Below, piece by piece: positions 48,353 to 57,810 of a stretch of 64,000 nt of DNA. Below the pieces are notes generated by a model that did not search any database, was not told the DNA's origin, and saw nothing but the letters and a program-made list of their open reading frames with translations. Made by a program: the position numbers and the translations under genes. Within the stretch, counting starts at the first letter, position 1. Every line of letters starts with the position of its first letter. The stretch is from Escherichia phage IrisVonRoten, in sequence record MZ501075; one strand, given 5' to 3'.

Positions 48353-48853
48353 AACAATACTCCTGTGTTGGAAATGAAATAAGTTTTCTTTAGGACTATT
48401 CAGAAAGAATAGAACAACTGTTACTGTCAATTTCTCAACAAATTAATTGCAAATACTGAAGTGGGGTGGCAACTTCCACTTTCACGCTGCGCTGCTGCCT
48501 CATTATATCGCACAAATCCTTGAGGATGGCCGCTAAGCCAGATTTGCTCACCTAATGCTTCATATACTAGCTCATACTAGATGCAATATAACTTACAGAA
48601 TCACGTCTCGGTAGTTTTTCACTCCTCCCATCTCACTTCACAACCACCTCATACTAGGTTGCTTCGAGGCCTTACCAGGGTTCCTATGGGACGCAGATCG
48701 CTAAGTATTCTATTAACTATTTGTTTAAAAACTAACACGTAACAGTTAAAACAACCCTTAATGGGGCAGCCTAACTGTTCCGTATCGCGGATTGTAAACA
48801 AGAAAAATTAGTAAAACCAATTTTTACTAATGTCTCTCAATTCAATATAAATA

Positions 48854-48881
48854 TTATATCAAGATTTTGAGTATCATGCAA
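48854..48881 (-). promoter_or_regulatory. T5 early-type promoter preceding an ORF-free ~500-nt region
   Basis: minus-sense TTGCAT-N16-TATAAT with conserved downstream ATTTATATTGAATTGAGAGA. Confidence 0.4.
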
Positions 48882-48918
48882 GTAAAATTTTCCGGATGGT
48901 GCTATCAGTGTCTTTGAG

Positions 48919-48945
48919 TACAGAGAAAACCGAGCCAAAATGACT
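48919..48945 (-). terminator. putative terminator (minus strand)
   Basis: minus-sense AACCGAG-9nt-CTCGGTT followed by TTCTCTG. Confidence 0.4.
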
Positions 48946-48957
48946 CGGTTATACGGA

Positions 48958-49152
48958 TTAATCATAAAAAAGACCACGAATAGTATTAGCAAATTTAAGT
49001 ATAATAGCGCGGTTTGAGCTACTTAACTTTTTAATATCGAAAGTGGGATCAGTCAAATATCTCGCCATAAATTTTACTTGTTTAGCGGAAAGTTGACCCT
49101 TATTCCACTTTTTAATTTTACCATAACATACCCAATATTCTTTATTCATCAT
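48958..49152 (-). CDS. hypothetical small protein
   Basis: 64-aa ORF. Confidence 0.3.
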   Translation of the reverse strand: MMNKEYWVCYGKIKKWNKGQLSAKQVKFMARYLTDPTFDIKKLSSSNRAIILKFANTIRGLFYD

Positions 49153-49534
49153 TTAGTCCCGGAACATAGATTCCAACACGATTTAATTGTTCTTTAGCTT
49201 CTTTGAGAATACCTGGAGTGTACTCCCAAATATCATCTTCCACCTGTAAAAGATGGGGCGAACAACCGTCACCAGGCACACGACATATGGCCAAACCACG
49301 TGGATGGAACAAAGAGAAATTTAGTGCAACAATTAAACCCATAGCAGACAATTCATTCCAATCCAATTCCCATTCCCTAGCGTAGCCTGATAGGAAAACA
49401 CCAACACAGGGATCATCTATTTGCTGCTCTGGAAAAGTGAAGGAGGCTTGTCTTACCCCCAACCAACGTTGTAGCAGCTTCTCCGCACGCTTCACCAAAC
49501 TAGGATCAATCTGACGCCAATATACTTGTTTCAT
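49142..49534 (-). CDS. hypothetical protein, tandem paralog A
   Basis: 130 aa; shares MGL[IV]xALN[FY]xLF.P and G[IY]x[VI]PGL motifs with the adjacent ORF 49543-49971. Confidence 0.4.
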   Translation of the reverse strand: MKQVYWRQIDPSLVKRAEKLLQRWLGVRQASFTFPEQQIDDPCVGVFLSGYAREWELDWNELSAMGLIVALNFSLFHPRGLAICRVPGDGCSPHLLQVEDDIWEYTPGILKEAKEQLNRVGIYVPGLNDE

Positions 49535-49542
49535 TGTGCCCC

Positions 49543-49971
49543 TTAGGCAGTTAAACCCGGAATTTGATAACCAAAACGACGAAGTTTTTGGATACCATCA
49601 TTTACTTCTTCCGGTGAGTAAGACCAACCGTAATGTTCATTAATTTGAAAGCCTGGAGATTCACTGGTTTTATAATTAACAACAATACGGTGTTTATTGG
49701 GCATAAATAGCTTATAGTTTAATGCAAAAACCAAGCCCATTTCATCTAACTCTTTCCAGCCGACAATCTCTTCAAGACCATCCTCTACCTGCACAATTAA
49801 ACCAATACAGGGAGCTTCTTCAATCTCACCTTTAAAAGCAAAGGAGATTTCATTATTCTCACACCATATTTTCAGAGCATTAATAGCCTCATTGTACAGG
49901 TTGTCTGGAAGAGTACGCCAAAAATTAACCAATATTGGGTTAGCTTCTTTAGAGAATACATTATTGAACAT
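49543..49971 (-). CDS. hypothetical protein, tandem paralog B
   Basis: 142 aa; alignable with ORF 49142-49534 over ~90 residues. Confidence 0.4.
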   Translation of the reverse strand: MFNNVFSKEANPILVNFWRTLPDNLYNEAINALKIWCENNEISFAFKGEIEEAPCIGLIVQVEDGLEEIVGWKELDEMGLVFALNYKLFMPNKHRIVVNYKTSESPGFQINEHYGWSYSPEEVNDGIQKLRRFGYQIPGLTA

Positions 49972-49973
49972 AT

Positions 49974-50480
49974 TTACACCTTAAATTGTTGTAGGGCTTT
50001 ACACATTTCAAGATCTGGACTAAATTCTAACATATAGCTAACAGCTTTTAAATCTTGAAGATTTATTCCAGTTCTACCGTTGACTATAACCGTTGGATAC
50101 TGGTACATCATAGCACCAGCGTCATCCAGCACACACCAATGTTTGAGCTTATGCTTTTCAACAAAGCGAAGAACAGAATTACCCCTAGATAGCCCACCAC
50201 CAGTAAAATCCGTTGTACCAAGAAAACGATCGATAAGATCTAATCCGGTCATAATCTGAACGTTCTCCATCTCATTCCTAACAGAGAACCATGAAGATAC
50301 CCCAACAATCATTATTGGAGAAGGACTAATAAAGTCCTGAAAAGCCTTGAGAAGCGGTTTAAAAACCCAGTCACTTCCAAAGAAAATCTTTTCATCATCA
50401 GGTGCATGGTGATGGGAGATGCTCGAGTTGAGCACCCCATCAATATCTAGAAAAATAATTGGAGTATTACTTATTTCCAT
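49974..50480 (-). CDS. HAD-superfamily phosphatase-like protein
   Basis: 168 aa; N-terminal IIFLDIDGVLN (HAD motif I DxDGx). Confidence 0.45.
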   Translation of the reverse strand: MEISNTPIIFLDIDGVLNSSISHHHAPDDEKIFFGSDWVFKPLLKAFQDFISPSPIMIVGVSSWFSVRNEMENVQIMTGLDLIDRFLGTTDFTGGGLSRGNSVLRFVEKHKLKHWCVLDDAGAMMYQYPTVIVNGRTGINLQDLKAVSYMLEFSPDLEMCKALQQFKV

Positions 50481-50649
50481 TTTTGTTCCTTTCTAAGAAC
50501 GTATCATACTCAACTGTATCAACATATATGACACCATAGTCATCGGATTTATAGTCCATTTCCCATAGCTCACATCGATAGCACCAACTACCATCCGCCC
50601 ATACAAATATATCATCGGGATGTGTATATACAGATTTAACTATGGACAT
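50467..50649 (-). CDS. hypothetical small protein
   Basis: 60-aa ORF bridging the HAD and Sir2-like genes with overlaps. Confidence 0.25.
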   Translation of the reverse strand: MSIVKSVYTHPDDIFVWADGSWCYRCELWEMDYKSDDYGVIYVDTVEYDTFLERNKNGNK

Positions 50650-51464
50650 ATCTGTTTCCCCGGCATATAAGGTCTACCCTCTAGATGAGCTTCCACACGA
50701 GCAATAAAACCAGGGTCACTGAAAGCATCTACCGCACCTTTACTCCAGTAAGGAATACCACGATCTTCCAGTTGGTACATATCACTACGAGTCATACCTT
50801 GATAGCCTGGTTCCGCCGCTAAGGCACTATCGTAGTAGTTAACTACCATAAGTTTCGCAGCAGTCCGATTAAGAACAGGGAATAATTCCCAGTAGAAGTT
50901 AATTACTTGGTTAGAGCAACCAACCACCACAATCATATCTTGACTGGTAATACCATCAAAAACATTGTACATCTCAGCGTATGCTGGAGCACACTCCCCA
51001 AAGAAGATTACATTAGGTTTAACCCATTTATAATCATCAGGGTCAATAGAGCTATACCCAACATCAATAACTCGTTTATTACTACTATTGTAGCTATCAG
51101 CTACAACAACCTCTTTTAAATACCCGTGAATGTGCAGAATGTCACTATGTGGAACGCCAGCACGCTCAATAAGGTCATCAACGTTGGTAGTTAAGTTTAC
51201 TACTTGACCCGGATATTTCTTATACCATTCACCAATACGCAGGTGTGCAAGATTGGGCTCAACAGTTTCTAACTCTTCACGACGTTTGTTGTAAAACATG
51301 TGGGTTTTATGATAAAAGTTACCACGAAAGGCATGAATATTACATACCTCTTCTAAGTCATAATCATCCCACAATGCTTTACCACTAGCAGTATCAGTAC
51401 GAAAAGCTCGTACACCACTTTCAACACTCAAACCCGCACCGCTAATAATAATTAATCTACGCAC
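50640..51464 (-). CDS. Sir2-family (sirtuin-like) NAD-binding protein lacking the zinc-ribbon cysteines
   Basis: 274 aa; ISGAGLSVESGVRAFR, NLTTNVDDLIERAG, HIHG, VIFFGE, VVGCSNQV align with the canonical sirtuin motifs (as in CobB); no Cys pairs where the Zn module normally sits. Confidence 0.65.
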   Translation of the reverse strand: MRRLIIISGAGLSVESGVRAFRTDTASGKALWDDYDLEEVCNIHAFRGNFYHKTHMFYNKRREELETVEPNLAHLRIGEWYKKYPGQVVNLTTNVDDLIERAGVPHSDILHIHGYLKEVVVADSYNSSNKRVIDVGYSSIDPDDYKWVKPNVIFFGECAPAYAEMYNVFDGITSQDMIVVVGCSNQVINFYWELFPVLNRTAAKLMVVNYYDSALAAEPGYQGMTRSDMYQLEDRGIPYWSKGAVDAFSDPGFIARVEAHLEGRPYMPGKQICP

Positions 51465-51658
51465 TATACGATTCCTTGCTTAAATCCTTCGATAATATTT
51501 CGGAGTAAAATTGCTTCCTCCGGGCGTACCTTTTCTTGTTTAATAAGCATATCCAATCTAGCAATACAAGTAGCTACACCAGCATTATAACCAAAGTTCC
51601 ACTGCTCAATAAGCATGTTTTCTGGATTACTTTTTAGATTCTGATTCAAGAAGTCCAT
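51464..51658 (-). CDS. hypothetical small protein
   Basis: 64-aa ORF. Confidence 0.25.
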   Translation of the reverse strand: MDFLNQNLKSNPENMLIEQWNFGYNAGVATCIARLDMLIKQEKVRPEEAILLRNIIEGFKQGIV

Positions 51659-51830
51659 AAAGTTTCTCCTCTAGTTCCATAACACGATTTTCATAAGAAG
51701 CACGCAACTTTTCAATTGCCAGTGCACGCACTGTAACCTCATTAGAATTAATAGCTAGTTGGGCCAGATCTTCTGTTTCCATACGTCCGTTGTAAATTAA
51801 GCGATATTTAAGATGTTTTACGTTTTTCAT
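51627..51830 (-). CDS. hypothetical small protein
   Basis: 67-aa ORF. Confidence 0.25.
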   Translation of the reverse strand: MKNVKHLKYRLIYNGRMETEDLAQLAINSNEVTVRALAIEKLRASYENRVMELEEKLYGLLESESKK

Positions 51831-51895: not shown

Positions 51896-52039
51896 TCACG
51901 CCCTAAGATCAATCTTCTCTTCGTCCATCCAAGTATTTACTAAACATAATTTAGTTATACCCTCACGGAGAATGGAACCATATGCCCCAGAATCCATAAT
52001 AAAATAGATACGTTCTTTATCTACCTTGTGAACTCTCAT
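51896..52039 (-). CDS. small ORF (47 aa) directly behind an early promoter, not in the ORF track
   Basis: hand translation MRVHKVDKERIYFIMDSGAYGSILREGITKLCLVNTWMDEEKIDLRA; strong RBS GAGAGGAGAAAG; coordinates approximate to within a few nt. Confidence 0.35.
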   Translation of the reverse strand: MRVHKVDKERIYFIMDSGAYGSILREGITKLCLVNTWMDEEKIDLRA

Positions 52040-52067: not shown

Positions 52068-52096
52068 ATTATATATAAATTTTTGGCTGAAAGCAA
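52068..52096 (-). promoter_or_regulatory. T5 early-type promoter
   Basis: minus-sense TTGCTT-N17-TATAAT followed by AGATTTATAAATTTGAGAGGAGA. Confidence 0.55.
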
Positions 52097-52138
52097 ATAA
52101 AATAAAAGCCAGGTCGACTAGCAACCCGGCTGATTAGC

Positions 52139-54013
52139 TTATTTAGCTCGAATATCCTGATGTTTCACCCTGCCCATAACCTCGTGCTGTTTGCCGGGGT
52201 TAAATGGACGAGCACCTGGATTTCCAAGATACCCACAAACTCGACGAGTTACTTCAAGAGTTTCGGGGTCATGATTACCACAGATAGGGCACTTAAACCC
52301 ATCTTCGGATGCTACTGTTTCACCTAAGAATCCACATTTACCGCAAGAATCCACTGGAGTATTAATACCGAAGTAATGAACTTTACTAGCAGCATAATTA
52401 ATAACCCATTCCAGTGCATCTGGGAATCGTTTCATATCTGGTAGTTCTACATAGGAAATACACCCACCAGAAGCAATAGGAGTAAAGTTAGATTCATAAT
52501 CAAATTTCACGTTAGGAGCAACTTTACGTTCCACATCAAGGTGGTGAGAGTTGGTGTAGTATCCTTTGGACAGAATATCTTCATGCTCCGGGAAATATTC
52601 ACGGTCTAGACGACAAAAGCGATCACATAGGGACTCTGATGGTGTAGCATACAGGCTATAACCTAACTTAGTCTCTTCCTTCTTCTGATCGACCCTATCC
52701 CGCATGTACTGCAATACACGCTGAACAAACTTGATGCAGGTCTCAGACATTGTATCTACATCTTTGCCAAACATGAACTGTAGCATTTCATGGCAACCAA
52801 TATACCCCAGAGATACAGAAGCACGGTTATAGAAATGATCGAATACATATTCATCCGGCCCTAAGCGTAGTCCAAAGGCTCCTGACATATAGAGGATGGG
52901 TGCGGCTTTAGCTTGAATGTACTTTAAGCGATCAACTCTCCACTCCAATGCTTTTAACGCTGTATCCACACGTAGCTCGAGCAAATCAAAGAATAGATCA
53001 ATATTCCCTTCAGCTTCGATAGCAATTCTAGGCAGGTTTACAGAAACAACACCTAAGTTATTACGACCTGCAGTTTCACCATCTTCTGTAGCAGCCAGGA
53101 ATGAACGGCAGCCCATAGAAACTTTATAGTCACCAGTAACTTCCACAACCTTATCGTAGCTGATATAGTCGGGATACATACGTTCAGCAGTACATTTCAT
53201 AGCTAACTTCTTGACGTCATAATTAACATCTCCTGGCTTCATATTTACGCCATCACGCAGAACAAACACCAGTTTCGGGAAGATAGCTGTACGTTTATTG
53301 ATACCTAAACCATCCATGCGTACTTTCAGTATTGCTTTCTGTACTAGACGTGCTTCCCAAGAAGTTCCTAGACCAAAACCAAAGGTAATAAATGGACTCT
53401 GACCATTAGAGTTGAACATGGTATTGATTTCATATTCTAAACCCTGACAAGCGTCATAGACTTCTTTTTCAGTCATCTCCGTAGCCATTACGGATGCTTT
53501 GGCTTCATCCTTAGTCCAACGTTTTGCAAACGCATGATTTTTGTCATAGGATTTACGAACATAAGGGGCTAATACTTCATCAAGGCGATCTACAGAAGTA
53601 CCACCATACTGATGGGAGCTAACCTGAGTGATAATCTGAGCAGTAATAGCCGCCGCAGTAGTGATAGAGTTTGGAGTGCTAATTTCAGCATTACCAACCT
53701 TCATACCATTCTTCAACATATCTTCCAAAGCTACCAGACAACAGTTAGTCATACCTAATGCAGCATAATCAGCATCATGGAAATGAATATCTCCAATCAT
53801 ATGAGCATTTCGAATCTGAATTGGCATTTCTTCTAGAATCAGATATTTACTTAACTCCCCTGCAAGCATATCCCTTTGTGTAGGGAAACGCTCAGAGGGT
53901 TTATTCGCATTATTAAAGAGAAGCTCTTCATCAGCAGAACCCTCAATAATTTCTTTGCAGTTTCTAATCAAGGACTGCATTTCCTTGTATTTTAGTTCAT
54001 CATTGCGATTCAT
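52139..54013 (-). CDS. nrdD: anaerobic ribonucleoside-triphosphate reductase
   Basis: 624 aa; C-terminal glycyl-radical motif RRVCGYLG and Zn-site cysteines (CGKCG, CPICG). Confidence 0.9.
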   Translation of the reverse strand: MNRNDELKYKEMQSLIRNCKEIIEGSADEELLFNNANKPSERFPTQRDMLAGELSKYLILEEMPIQIRNAHMIGDIHFHDADYAALGMTNCCLVALEDMLKNGMKVGNAEISTPNSITTAAAITAQIITQVSSHQYGGTSVDRLDEVLAPYVRKSYDKNHAFAKRWTKDEAKASVMATEMTEKEVYDACQGLEYEINTMFNSNGQSPFITFGFGLGTSWEARLVQKAILKVRMDGLGINKRTAIFPKLVFVLRDGVNMKPGDVNYDVKKLAMKCTAERMYPDYISYDKVVEVTGDYKVSMGCRSFLAATEDGETAGRNNLGVVSVNLPRIAIEAEGNIDLFFDLLELRVDTALKALEWRVDRLKYIQAKAAPILYMSGAFGLRLGPDEYVFDHFYNRASVSLGYIGCHEMLQFMFGKDVDTMSETCIKFVQRVLQYMRDRVDQKKEETKLGYSLYATPSESLCDRFCRLDREYFPEHEDILSKGYYTNSHHLDVERKVAPNVKFDYESNFTPIASGGCISYVELPDMKRFPDALEWVINYAASKVHYFGINTPVDSCGKCGFLGETVASEDGFKCPICGNHDPETLEVTRRVCGYLGNPGARPFNPGKQHEVMGRVKHQDIRAK

Positions 54014-55476: not shown

Positions 55477-57810
55477 CAAATGAGCCATCGCATTGAAAAA
55501 GTAATTAAACGTGACGGTACTGTAGAAGACTTTGCTCCTGAAAAACTCAATGGTTGGGCAGAGTATGGTTGCAAAACAGTTGATGTAAGTTGGTCAGCCA
55601 TTACTATGGCTGCTCAAAAAACTCTGCCTAAAGGGGTTGTAGATTCCGACACTCTGATGGATGCTTTAATTAAGGCTGCTGAAAGTCTTATCAAAGATAA
55701 TCCAGCATACGACGTGCCAGCAAAGGAATTACGTCTTGCGCAAATGCGTAAACGCCTTTATGATTCCTTCGAACCACCTTCTCTGCGCTTTTTCCACGAT
55801 CATATGGTTAGTGTAGGTGCATGGGAAGACATGAGTGCATGGATTACCAATGAGCAATTTGAAGCTCTGAATCAGGTTATCGACCATGATCGCGACCGTC
55901 TTTTCACTAGCGGAGGATTGAAACAATTCTTTGATAAGTATTCTCGTCGTAATATCGCAACTGGCGAAATTTACGAAACCCCGCAATTTGCCTATATGGG
56001 TATGGCAATGGCGATGTTATCTCAACCTAATTGGACAATTCTAGATGCAATCGACCTCTACAACGCAATGTCGCTACACAAAATCAACGTTCCTACGCCG
56101 CCATTGGTTGGCTTGCGCTCTAGTGACCGTGGATTTGCTAGTTGCTGCCTCGTGGATTCCACTGACACGTTGGATTCAATCGACACAGCCGAGCACATCG
56201 TCTTCAAAATGGTCGCAGCCAGAGCGGGAATCGGGTATCATCTTGAAAGCCGATCAATTGCTGATCCGGTGCGAAATGGGGCATTCCCGCATTCCGGAAA
56301 ACTGCCATATTATCGACACATTGACCGATCAGTAAAGGCTAATACTCAGCAAACTCGTGGCGGTTCTGCTACAGTGTCTTATCCTTACTTTGACCCTGAA
56401 ATCATTCAGTTGATGCAGGTTAAGCAACAACGTGCTACAGATGAGAATAAAATCGATAAGATGGATTATTCTCTGAGCTTCAACAATCTTTTGTTAAAAC
56501 GTTATCTGAAAAATGAAGATATTACGCTAATGTCATACTTCTATGCTCCAGAAGTTCATGAAGCGTTTTATAGTGATGACGAGGCTAAATTTGAAGAAAT
56601 CTATGTGGCAGCGGAGAAACGTGTGGCATCTCTTACAAAGATCGACCACGAAGGAAAAACAGTTCCAGCAGCTCCTAAAGTCTCTGCAAAAGAAATCCTA
56701 GATACTTGGCTACGTATCCGAATGGAAACAGGACGTATGTATGCTCACCACATCGGGGAATCTAATCGTCATGGTAACTTCCTTGATCCGATCCGTATGA
56801 CAAACCTTTGTGTTGAAATTACTCAGCCTACACGCCCATTCCACCACATTACAGAGCTGTATAAAACAAAAGAACAACTTGATCAAATGAAGCCGGAGGA
56901 TATTGGGGAAGTATCTCTGTGTAACTTAGGTGGTGTTGTACTAGGACGCATGGAATCTCTGGCTGAGTGGGAAAAGACTTGCTATATTCTTCTGAAATTC
57001 GTTGATACCATCATTGAAATTCAGGACTATCCGTTCCCAACTATGGAATATACAGCTAAGAAACGTCGTAACGTTGGTATTGGCCTTATGAACGCAGCAG
57101 GTGCAATGGCAGCAGAAGGTCTGGCTTATGAAGGCGTTGAAGCACGTAACTGGATCCATCGTGAAGCTGAAAAACTGTCCTACTTCCTGCATAAAGCTTC
57201 TGTACGTCTGGCTAAAGAACAAGGTGCATGTGAATGGTTTAATCGTACTAAACCATCTAAAGGAACTCTGGTAATCGATACGTATAAGAAAACTGTTGAT
57301 GAGCTGGTATCAGTAGGCCTAGAAATGGATTGGGAATCTCTGCGTGCAGATATTCTGAAATACGGTATGCGTAACTCTGTTCTGACGGCACAGATGCCGG
57401 GAGAAAGTTCTTCCGTTCTGTTAGGGGTTACTAACTCTATTGAACCACCTCGTAAGATTGTATCTATCAAGGGTAGTGCAGTGAATAAAGTAATTGCAAT
57501 TGCTCCCGGTGCAACCGATTGGGAAACTTTAATGAGCTATAAACTGGCTTATGATGTGGATCGTATTGAATGGATCAAATGGGTAGCAACTATGCAGAAA
57601 TTCTTCAGCCAGTCTATCAGTACTAATATGTACTACGACTACACCAAGTTTGAGAATGAAATCATTCCTGGCCCAGTAGTAGTTCGTGATTTCATGACTG
57701 CTGTTAAATATGGTTGGAAGACTTGGTACTACGCAAACTTCAACACTGCGAATGGTGGAGGAGCGGGTGAAGAAGCAGCGGGTTGTGCTTCTGGTGGTTG
57801 CCAGTTGTAA
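55477..57810 (+). CDS. nrdA: ribonucleotide reductase class Ia large subunit
   Basis: N-terminal ATP-cone (VIKRDGTVEDF); catalytic-site region (NLCVEI) and C-terminal Cys pair; ATG 55477 with RBS AAGGAAA (track ORF begins at 55375). Confidence 0.9.
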   Translation, partial: QMSHRIEKVIKRDGTVEDFAPEKLNGWAEYGCKTVDVSWSAITMAAQKTLPKGVVDSDTLMDALIKAAESLIKDNPAYDVPAKELRLAQMRKRLYDSFEPPSLRFFHDHMVSVGAWEDMSAWITNEQFEALNQVIDHDRDRLFTSGGLKQFFDKYSRRNIATGEIYETPQFAYMGMAMAMLSQPNWTILDAIDLYNAMSLHKINVPTPPLVGLRSSDRGFASCCLVDSTDTLDSIDTAEHIVFKMVAARAGIGYHLESRSIADPVRNGAFPHSGKLPYYRHIDRSVKANTQQTRGGSATVSYPYFDPEIIQLMQVKQQRATDENKIDKMDYSLSFNNLLLKRYLKNEDITLMSYFYAPEVHEAFYSDDEAKFEEIYVAAEKRVASLTKIDHEGKTVPAAPKVSAKEILDTWLRIRMETGRMYAHHIGESNRHGNFLDPIRMTNLCVEITQPTRPFHHITELYKTKEQLDQMKPEDIGEVSLCNLGGVVLGRMESLAEWEKTCYILLKFVDTIIEIQDYPFPTMEYTAKKRRNVGIGLMNAAGAMAAEGLAYEGVEARNWIHREAEKLSYFLHKASVRLAKEQGACEWFNRTKPSKGTLVIDTYKKTVDELVSVGLEMDWESLRADILKYGMRNSVLTAQMPGESSSVLLGVTNSIEPPRKIVSIKGSAVNKVIAIAPGATDWETLMSYKLAYDVDRIEWIKWVATMQKFFSQSISTNMYYDYTKFENEIIPGPVVVRDFMTAVKYGWKTWYYANFNTANGGGAGEEAAGCASGGCQL

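Follow-up and report, generated by a model that had tools for sequence, protein, structure and literature searches.

This locus raises the question of what two adjacent and mutually related small genes do beside a phosphatase gene and downstream of a Sir2-like gene, and whether the products of all four genes serve a common function. The locus lies in a stretch of 64,000 nucleotides (hereafter, the window) from Escherichia phage IrisVonRoten (sequence record MZ501075), which, as its sequence places it, is a T5-like phage (Tequintavirus). The open reading frames (ORFs) given in a preliminary description of this DNA, two of 130 and 142 amino acids (aa) and a HAD-motif ORF, here of 168 aa, were found at 49142-49534, 49543-49971 and 49974-50480, and they encode, respectively, two paralogous proteins of the DUF7415 family, hereafter paralogs B and A, and a HAD-superfamily phosphatase. 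They lie in that half of an early transcription unit of this T5-like phage which is farther from the promoter, and constitute the annotated T5 block T5.105-T5.107 (HAD, A and B in that order), which is already known as sequence. Our preferred explanation, to which we give a probability of roughly 0.4, is that DUF7415 serves as a non-catalytic binding module alongside enzymes acting on nucleic-acid ends or nucleotides, with B as the active copy, A as its partner, and the HAD phosphatase as a likelier companion than Sir2.

The island genes, including those for the Sir2-like protein (50640-51464), the HAD phosphatase and both paralogs, are all on the minus strand, and the order of transcription is nrdD, three ORFs of 47, 67 and 64 aa, the Sir2-like gene, a 60-aa ORF, HAD, A, B, and a second ORF of 64 aa. 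The preliminary description had listed the paralogs first, then HAD, then Sir2 immediately beside it; this order is reversed because the plus-strand order had been read as that of transcription. The island lies downstream of Sir2, the 60-aa ORF (50467-50649, minus strand) separates Sir2 from HAD, and the last 64-aa ORF (48958-49152, minus strand), which had been overlooked, ends the operon. The tight packing described earlier was borne out, with junctions of -10, -14, +2, +8 and -11 nt from Sir2 to the last ORF. At the DNA level, bases 48900-51500 of the window match a fragment of Salmonella phage S.Inf 5-2 at 100% identity and T5 at about 95%, and this segment has matches in 436 phage records.

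The boundaries of the unit could be read from signals on the minus strand. An intrinsic terminator after nrdD (52107-52131; 10-bp stem and T-run) marks the upstream boundary and aligns with a terminator annotated in T5. It is followed by a sigma-70-type early promoter (52068-52096) having a -35 element TTGCTT at 52096-52091, a 17-nt spacer, and a -10 element TATAAT at 52073-52068, which can be aligned, with nearly every base matching, to the promoter that the T5 record places at 55708-55782. A second intrinsic terminator (48928-48950; 10-bp stem and T-run) closes the unit and is identical in sequence to one annotated after T5.107. Nine same-strand ORFs with short gaps or overlaps run from the promoter to the closing terminator, and a signal scan gave no convincing internal signal between the two. 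The supposition that these genes are co-transcribed is thus well supported from the sequence, because a promoter and a terminator held in common with T5 bracket nine packed ORFs on the same strand, making one unit of about 3.1 kb. In our view these genes, although on one transcript, probably do not form an obligate single pathway.

Paralogs A and B are 31% identical over 124 aa (BLASTP, E 2e-18), and the shared motifs that had been pointed out, MGLVFALNYKLFMP / MGLIVALNFSLFHP and GYQIPGL / GIYVPGL, are present, so the paralogy claimed for the two proteins is upheld. They had also been described as having no recognisable domain, which is not the case: both match phrog_2502 and the Pfam family DUF7415 (PF24187; profile length 53 positions), with 106.8 bits for B and 112.6 bits for A against a gathering score of 27 bits. 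The C-terminal halves alone scored 52.3 and 51.2 bits with this Pfam profile and the N-terminal halves alone 65.3 and 58.3 bits. Against a profile built from single-domain members, the N-terminal halves gave -1 to -2 bits (hmmsearch), and a profile comparison by hhalign gave an E of 0.09, neither being significant. No internal repeats were detected by BLAST within either paralog, and a repeated W-helix-strand-strand pattern is seen in the models of both. The Pfam seed may be a mixture of two kinds of segment; alternatively, there was an internal duplication, too old for these tests to pick up. No additional copies of DUF7415 were found in the window.

The AlphaFold models, which are confident (A, pLDDT 89.1 and pTM 0.83; B, pLDDT 95.2 and pTM 0.89), have a common order of elements, namely helix-strand-strand followed by strand-helix-helix-strand-strand-helix, and on these models the paralogs are predicted to adopt a two-lobed alpha/beta fold. 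A fold search of the models against the PDB returned no relative, a PDB sequence search with the paralog profile returned no match, and no similarity of fold was found to the solved phage nucleotide sponges and inhibitors in the PDB. In several T5-like records the orthologues of A and B carry the names "exonuclease", "Phage exonuclease (ACLAME 70)" or "tail tube protein". That the two proteins are in fact exonucleases or tail tube proteins has these product names in its favour and is hardly credible, since neither a nuclease nor a structural family was matched in Pfam, NCBIfam, PHROGs or the PDB, no nuclease fold was returned by the fold search, and the genes belong to the early region, with nrdD on one side and the origin-binding helicase gene on the other. 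A nuclease domain was found only in DUF7415 fusion proteins such as P0187, and fusions of this kind, joining DUF7415 to a genuine Rv2179c-like exonuclease, are probably where the "exonuclease" label came from.

The two copies are not equivalent. A typical member of DUF7415 is either a single domain of 60-110 aa or a C-terminal addition to another early protein, and the single-domain motif, DWNELS..GL..IN.EILHP.GLA..R.P.TG.S.G...DG.WEY, is kept by B and is only weakly recognisable in A. Proteins of the T5 type are extended at the N-terminus by a further lobe and at the C-terminus by a conserved tail, G-x-x-[VI]-P-G-L. With the profile of single-domain members B scored 68.7 bits and A 31.3 bits, and across T5-like phages B-type proteins scored 58-69 bits and A-type proteins 14-31 bits. 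At the 30 positions that the rest of the family conserves, B agrees in 19 cases and A in 10, and A is without the conserved His, Gly-Leu-Ala, Arg and Asp of the family. These sequence comparisons show that B keeps the canonical C-terminal domain of DUF7415 and that most of the polar positions conserved in the family are gone from A.

The arrangement of a degenerate copy followed by a canonical one recurs in other T5-like phages. By reciprocal comparisons, gene 46 of the Klebsiella T5-like phage vB_Kpn13-P2 is A-type and the next gene, 45, is B-type, and an A-then-B pair was also found in two more distant metagenomic T5-like contigs, L104 and L106. The Vibrio T5-like phage pVp-1 has one DUF7415 gene only, which is B-type. 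Since vB_Kpn13-P2 and both contigs have the order A-B, the tandem duplication is shown to be old, preceding the split of these T5-like lineages, and the order has been retained. In a genome-wide CRISPRi-ART knockdown of T5, the orthologue of B (T5.107) was among 17 genes called "Fit", and T5.102, the Sir2 gene, and T5.103 to T5.106 were called "Not Fit" (PMC11879866, supplementary files).

The wider distribution of DUF7415 bears on what the domain may do. A profile search of 1.84 billion representative proteins returned 61 clusters only, and tblastn found DUF7415 in about 860-910 phage records, almost all of them of phages of Gammaproteobacteria, with hosts that are mostly Klebsiella, Salmonella, Escherichia, Enterobacter, Cronobacter, Aeromonas, Citrobacter and Yersinia. 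Hardly any members were found outside phages and prophages in these searches. Its fusion partners are an Rv2179c-like 3'-5' exoribonuclease, a DUF3850/ASCH-like domain (P2 Orf91 type), DUF5405 (P2 Orf83 type), the helix-turn-helix (HTH) domain of Cox, and a thymidylate-kinase-like domain. The "MazG-like" N-terminal domain named by NCBI in 185-aa fusions of Klebsiella prophages was confirmed by neither NCBIfam nor Pfam and was set aside.

DUF7415 genes occur in several settings. In Jiaodavirus a single-domain DUF7415 gene is positioned between nrdD and nrdG; in Klebsiella phage ValerieMcCarty04 (L004 3995-4213) and other Jiaodavirus this gene encodes 72 aa and overlaps both neighbours, and one Jiaodavirus record labels it "MazG-like family protein". 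A link to NrdD was suggested by this site together with the adjacency in T5-like phages, and it was rejected, as other T4-like genera place the gene elsewhere. In Slopekvirus and Pseudotevenvirus a single-domain DUF7415 gene is found one ORF downstream of a NUDIX gene, and in P2-like prophages DUF7415 comes after replication gene A. In Aeh1-like Aeromonas phages the order is td, HAD_SAK_2, nrdA.1, denA, rnlA and DUF7415, with the HAD_SAK_2 gene (Aeh1p322) three genes upstream of DUF7415 at a distance of 2.3 kb; these phages are one instance of HAD/DUF7415 co-localisation that is independent of Demerecviridae. The single-domain DUF7415 gene of Aeh1-like phages (77 aa; Aeh1p318 in Aeromonas phage Aeh1, L110 20958-21191) shares its first base with the final base of the RNA ligase 1 gene, so that its start overlaps the rnlA stop. 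Outside Demerecviridae, the neighbourhoods of 71 viral and prophage DUF7415 loci consist mainly of P2 replication gene A, methyltransferases and portal genes, and in none of the 71 was a Sir2 or HAD gene found within 4 kb.

It is the fusions to enzymes of nucleic acids and nucleotides, together with the Jiaodavirus, NUDIX and Aeh1 contexts, that support our preferred explanation. DUF7415 would accordingly be conceived as a small, non-catalytic binding module which would accompany enzymes acting on nucleic-acid ends or nucleotides early in infection. The active binder would be B, A would be a degenerate partner or scaffold, and the HAD phosphatase, rather than Sir2, would be the most likely companion.

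The motif FLDIDGVLN, by which the HAD protein had been recognised, is present in the 168-aa product, which matches HAD_SAK_2 (PF18143) with 73.9 bits against a cut-off of 27.5, over profile positions 1-138 of 139. All the HAD motifs were located, namely DIDGV (residue 12), VSSW (61), SRGNS (98) and LDDAG (118), and D12, D14, S62/S63, R99, R105, D119 and D120 are invariant in comparison with three distant homologues from Aeromonas and Proteus T4-like phages. On the strength of these residues the protein is very likely an active phosphatase, and we infer that it would act on phosphorylated ends of nucleic acids or on nucleotides. The PDB sequence search gave no match of this protein to any chain, T4 Pnk included. 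In RefSeq (NC_005859 57588-58094) and in several GenBank records of T5-like phages the HAD gene is mislabelled "Sir2 (NAD-dependent deacetylase)". The source of this error is likely phrog_18062, a profile of 92 positions bearing a Sir2 label, which matches the C-terminal half of the HAD protein with E 2e-58 and the true Sir2 with E 2e-06 only.

The HAD_SAK families were reportedly defined in the RNA-repair paper of Burroughs and Aravind. The "RNA repair" label derives from the name of the Pfam family, and the only support that we found for it is the gene context of Aeromonas phages, in which td, HAD, nrdA.1, denA and RNA ligase 1 are followed further on by a CCA-adding enzyme. Conceivably, the HAD enzyme heals RNA ends bearing a 3'-phosphate or a 2',3'-cyclic phosphate, in the manner of the phosphatase domain of T4 Pnk, and DUF7415 binds broken RNA (e.g., tRNA) or the repair enzymes. 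The direct succession of DUF7415 to RNA ligase 1 in Aeh1-like phages, with HAD_SAK_2 some 2 kb upstream and the CCA-adding enzyme nearby, agrees with such a repair set, as do the fusions of DUF7415 to a 3'-5' exoribonuclease domain and to the ASCH-like DUF3850; furthermore, a phage annotation table ties a HAD_SAK match in CDD to T4 Pnk (5UJ0) for one polynucleotide kinase ORF (PMC7765460). However, no RNA ligase, polynucleotide kinase or other repair enzyme was found near the HAD gene in the operon of the window or in that of T5, the RNA-repair context of HAD_SAK_2 was seen only in Aeh1-like and phiAS5-like Aeromonas phages, and Aeh1 has a separate full pseT. Moreover, phiAS5 has HAD and rnlA and is without DUF7415 there, most contexts of DUF7415 have no RNA-repair gene, and the fold search detected no RNA-binding fold for the domain. 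We therefore hold a dedicated RNA-repair role to be improbable.

The Sir2-like protein (274 aa; T5.102 orthologue; minus strand, GTG start) matches Pfam SIR2 (PF02146) with 86 bits against a cut-off of 24, and its closest match in the PDB is E. coli CobB (1s5p, E 9e-18). The motifs of the family are intact, with GAGLS at residue 9, TTNVD at residue 92 and HIHG at residue 111. By inspection, the four-Cys zinc module is missing, there being only the scattered Cys 41, 158, 183 and 273, and no Cys of the phage protein aligns with the Cys-rich segment of CobB. The protein scored 100 bits against an NCBIfam equivalog cut-off of 243.

The four gene products had been suspected of a shared function in nucleotide or NAD metabolite processing. 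In its strict form, Sir2, HAD and both DUF7415 proteins would together produce or break down an NAD-derived metabolite in a single pathway; for instance, Sir2 would consume NAD, HAD would dephosphorylate an ADP-ribose derivative and DUF7415 would bind the product. Such a pathway is suggested by the common transcript of Sir2, HAD and DUF7415, by the intact catalytic motifs of Sir2, and by the persistence of Sir2 followed by DUF7415 in every Demerecviridae lineage examined, from phages of E. coli to those of Vibrio. In T5, Epseptimavirus, Klebsiella T5-like phages, pVp-1 and metagenomic relatives, DUF7415 is located downstream of Sir2, and between them are at least one small ORF and, where it is present there, HAD. 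In contig L104, HAD is upstream of Sir2 and the gene set is still together, so that the relocated HAD gene remains in the cluster. Nevertheless, the early region of Demerecviridae is syntenic throughout, with ribonucleotide reductase (RNR), PhoH, NrdD, the island cluster, the origin-binding helicase and ligase in turn; conservation of the cluster is therefore weak evidence for functional coupling, and the co-occurrence is not independent evidence. The linkage of Sir2 to DUF7415 was seen only in Demerecviridae, with neither the 71 loci elsewhere nor the Straboviridae contexts having Sir2 near DUF7415. HAD is dispensable in some lineages, as in contig L106, which retains Sir2 and both paralogs, and the fitness calls of the T5 screen are discordant (PMC11879866). 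An NAD pathway common to all four is thus unlikely. A looser link of DUF7415 to nucleotide or RNA processing is possible, from the Aeh1 context and the fusions.

Several observations weigh against the preferred explanation, that of a binding module with HAD as its companion. T5-like phages of the Klebsiella type retain both paralogs and lack HAD, and HAD knockdown was "Not Fit" while that of T5.107 was "Fit" (PMC11879866); the loss of HAD in some lineages and the discordant fitness calls together mean that HAD is no obligate partner. The "Fit" call for T5.107 is itself marginal (mean -2.90, p 0.02). Known replication genes, e.g., T5.108, escape the screen, so that its negative calls are weak evidence (PMC11879866). 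Outside Demerecviridae and Aeh1-like phages, the contexts of DUF7415 are heterogeneous blocks of small early ORFs. Several of the fusion partners (Cox, Orf83 and Orf91) are adjacent genes of the P2 early operon, and the P2-type fusions may reflect adjacency rather than function. The strongly conserved polar residues (N, H, R, S, D, W and Y) would also fit a catalytic or a ligand-binding site, homology points to no biochemical activity for DUF7415, and the binding role is put forward with low confidence.

The same features of the family allow a role in counter-defence or host takeover, in which B-type DUF7415 would sequester a nucleotide immune signal or block a host protein and its place in the operon would be incidental. 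DUF7415 is a small early protein found almost exclusively in phages and prophages, patchy across unrelated phage families and often reshuffled; it has conserved aromatic residues and a Gly/Ser-rich loop; it stands beside nucleotide-hydrolysing enzymes in fusions and neighbourhoods; and the pairing of a degenerate with a canonical copy may recall duplicated inhibitor pairs. We regard this role as doubtful all the same, given that DUF7415 has no likeness to a solved sponge or inhibitor structure in the PDB and that the effect of T5.107 knockdown in a laboratory host argues for a general rather than a defence-specific role (PMC11879866). Neither paralog matched a PADLOC model, nor did HAD, Sir2, the product of the 60-aa ORF or any of five further DUF7415 proteins. 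A more inclusive proposal would be that DUF7415 is a new fold binding a nucleotide-type ligand, e.g., an immune second messenger or an NAD-derived product, with B as the binder and A as the scaffold; Sir2 and HAD would remove or convert the same class of molecule in a hitherto unrecognised module for counter-defence or nucleotide homeostasis, and phages would deploy DUF7415 alone or tethered to nucleotide-degrading enzymes. This we consider decidedly unlikely.

The remaining ORFs of the unit, all on the minus strand, are small. Upstream of the unit is nrdD (52139-54013, minus strand), and the first gene within the unit is the 47-aa ORF (51896-52039), which has no assigned function and has a homologue in a Klebsiella T5-like phage; GAGAGGAG is located 5' of its ATG. 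It is followed by a 67-aa ORF of the T5.101 family (51627-51830; PHROG match, phrog_5236) and by a 64-aa ORF (51464-51658; PHROG match, phrog_5827). The 60-aa ORF, which overlaps the Sir2 and HAD genes, belongs to the T5.104 family (phrog_5116) and has the motif DGSWCYR...SDDY. This family comes directly after Sir2 in T5, in a Klebsiella T5-like phage and in two metagenomic T5-like contigs, and in T5 there are two tandem 60-aa copies (57243-57601; T5.103 and T5.104, both phrog_5116) where the window has one. It is likewise the family found after Sir2 in Epseptimavirus, whereas the small ORF after Sir2 in pVp-1 is unrelated to it. Also in pVp-1 (JX195166, L109 6070-7017), the ORFs beside HAD (62 and 90 aa) are hydrophobic and membrane-like in look, and they look unlike the 60-aa family or DUF7415-A.

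The 64-aa ORF that ends the unit (PHROG match, phrog_29527) is present in phage ESCO40, and T5 is without this stretch of roughly 190 bp; the insertion or deletion sits just upstream of a terminator that is otherwise identical in T5. The sole Rfam match was a sub-threshold MicF at 48922-49009 (minus strand; 33.7 bits against a gathering score of 79), which falls on the hairpin of the operon terminator and was taken as a chance match. About 0.5 kb of non-coding DNA separates the last 64-aa ORF from the origin-binding helicase gene on its 3' side. The region after the operon terminator (48431-48927, minus strand) has a second promoter (-35 TTGCAT at 48881-48876 and -10 TATAAT at 48858-48853), and about 400 nt without an ORF extend between it and the origin-binding helicase gene. 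T5 has the same long leader 5' of that gene; in phage mar003J3 the leader harbours a gene for a homing endonuclease.

DUF7415 is carried by roughly 900 sequenced phages of enteric and aquatic Gammaproteobacteria, including the T5 family, several T4-like genera and P2-like prophages, and the long-retained pair of canonical and degenerate copies, as well as a domain that travels with nucleotide- and RNA-processing enzymes, are handles for experiments. The naming of the HAD gene as "Sir2" and of the paralogs as "exonuclease" or "tail tube protein" are database errors that propagate. In the literature searched, DUF7415, PF24187, PF18143, the PHROG numbers and the T5.10x tags are named in no main text. 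DUF7415 and HAD_SAK_2 are already in Pfam and PHROGs and the locus is already catalogued; what is new, as far as this literature shows, is the split into a canonical and a degenerate copy and its age, the lack of fold relatives, the co-localisation in Aeh1-like phages, and the origin of the misleading names.

Compared with known systems, the Sir2-like protein resembles CobB-type sirtuins (E. coli CobB, 1s5p) in its Rossmann core and its GAGxS, TxNxD and HG motifs; in contrast to CobB it is without the four-Cys zinc module and is far below the equivalog cut-offs, and unlike defence-type SIR2 proteins it matches no PADLOC model. The likeness of the phosphatase to HAD_SAK_2 consists of a full-length profile match and all four HAD catalytic motifs, and, unlike the HAD-type 3'-phosphatase domain of T4 polynucleotide kinase, it is a stand-alone protein of 168 aa with no kinase or ligase partner in the operon. 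In P2-like prophages DUF7415 is often fused to the C-terminus of Orf91 (DUF3850/ASCH-like), Orf83 (DUF5405) or Cox, whereas P2 itself has no DUF7415 and the T5 proteins carry none of these partner domains. Among members of DUF7415 (PF24187, phrog_2502, phrog_3954), the C-terminal domain of B carries the pattern DWNELS..GL...N...HP.GLA..R.P..G.SP, and the T5-type proteins differ from the other members in their extra N-terminal lobe, their tail, and their canonical/degenerate pair. T5 (AY543070 / NC_005859) differs from the window in having two 60-aa ORFs (T5.103 and T5.104) instead of one and in being without the 64-aa ORF at the end of the unit; its T5.105-T5.107 are the same genes, in the same order and with the same flanking promoter and terminator, at about 95% DNA identity.

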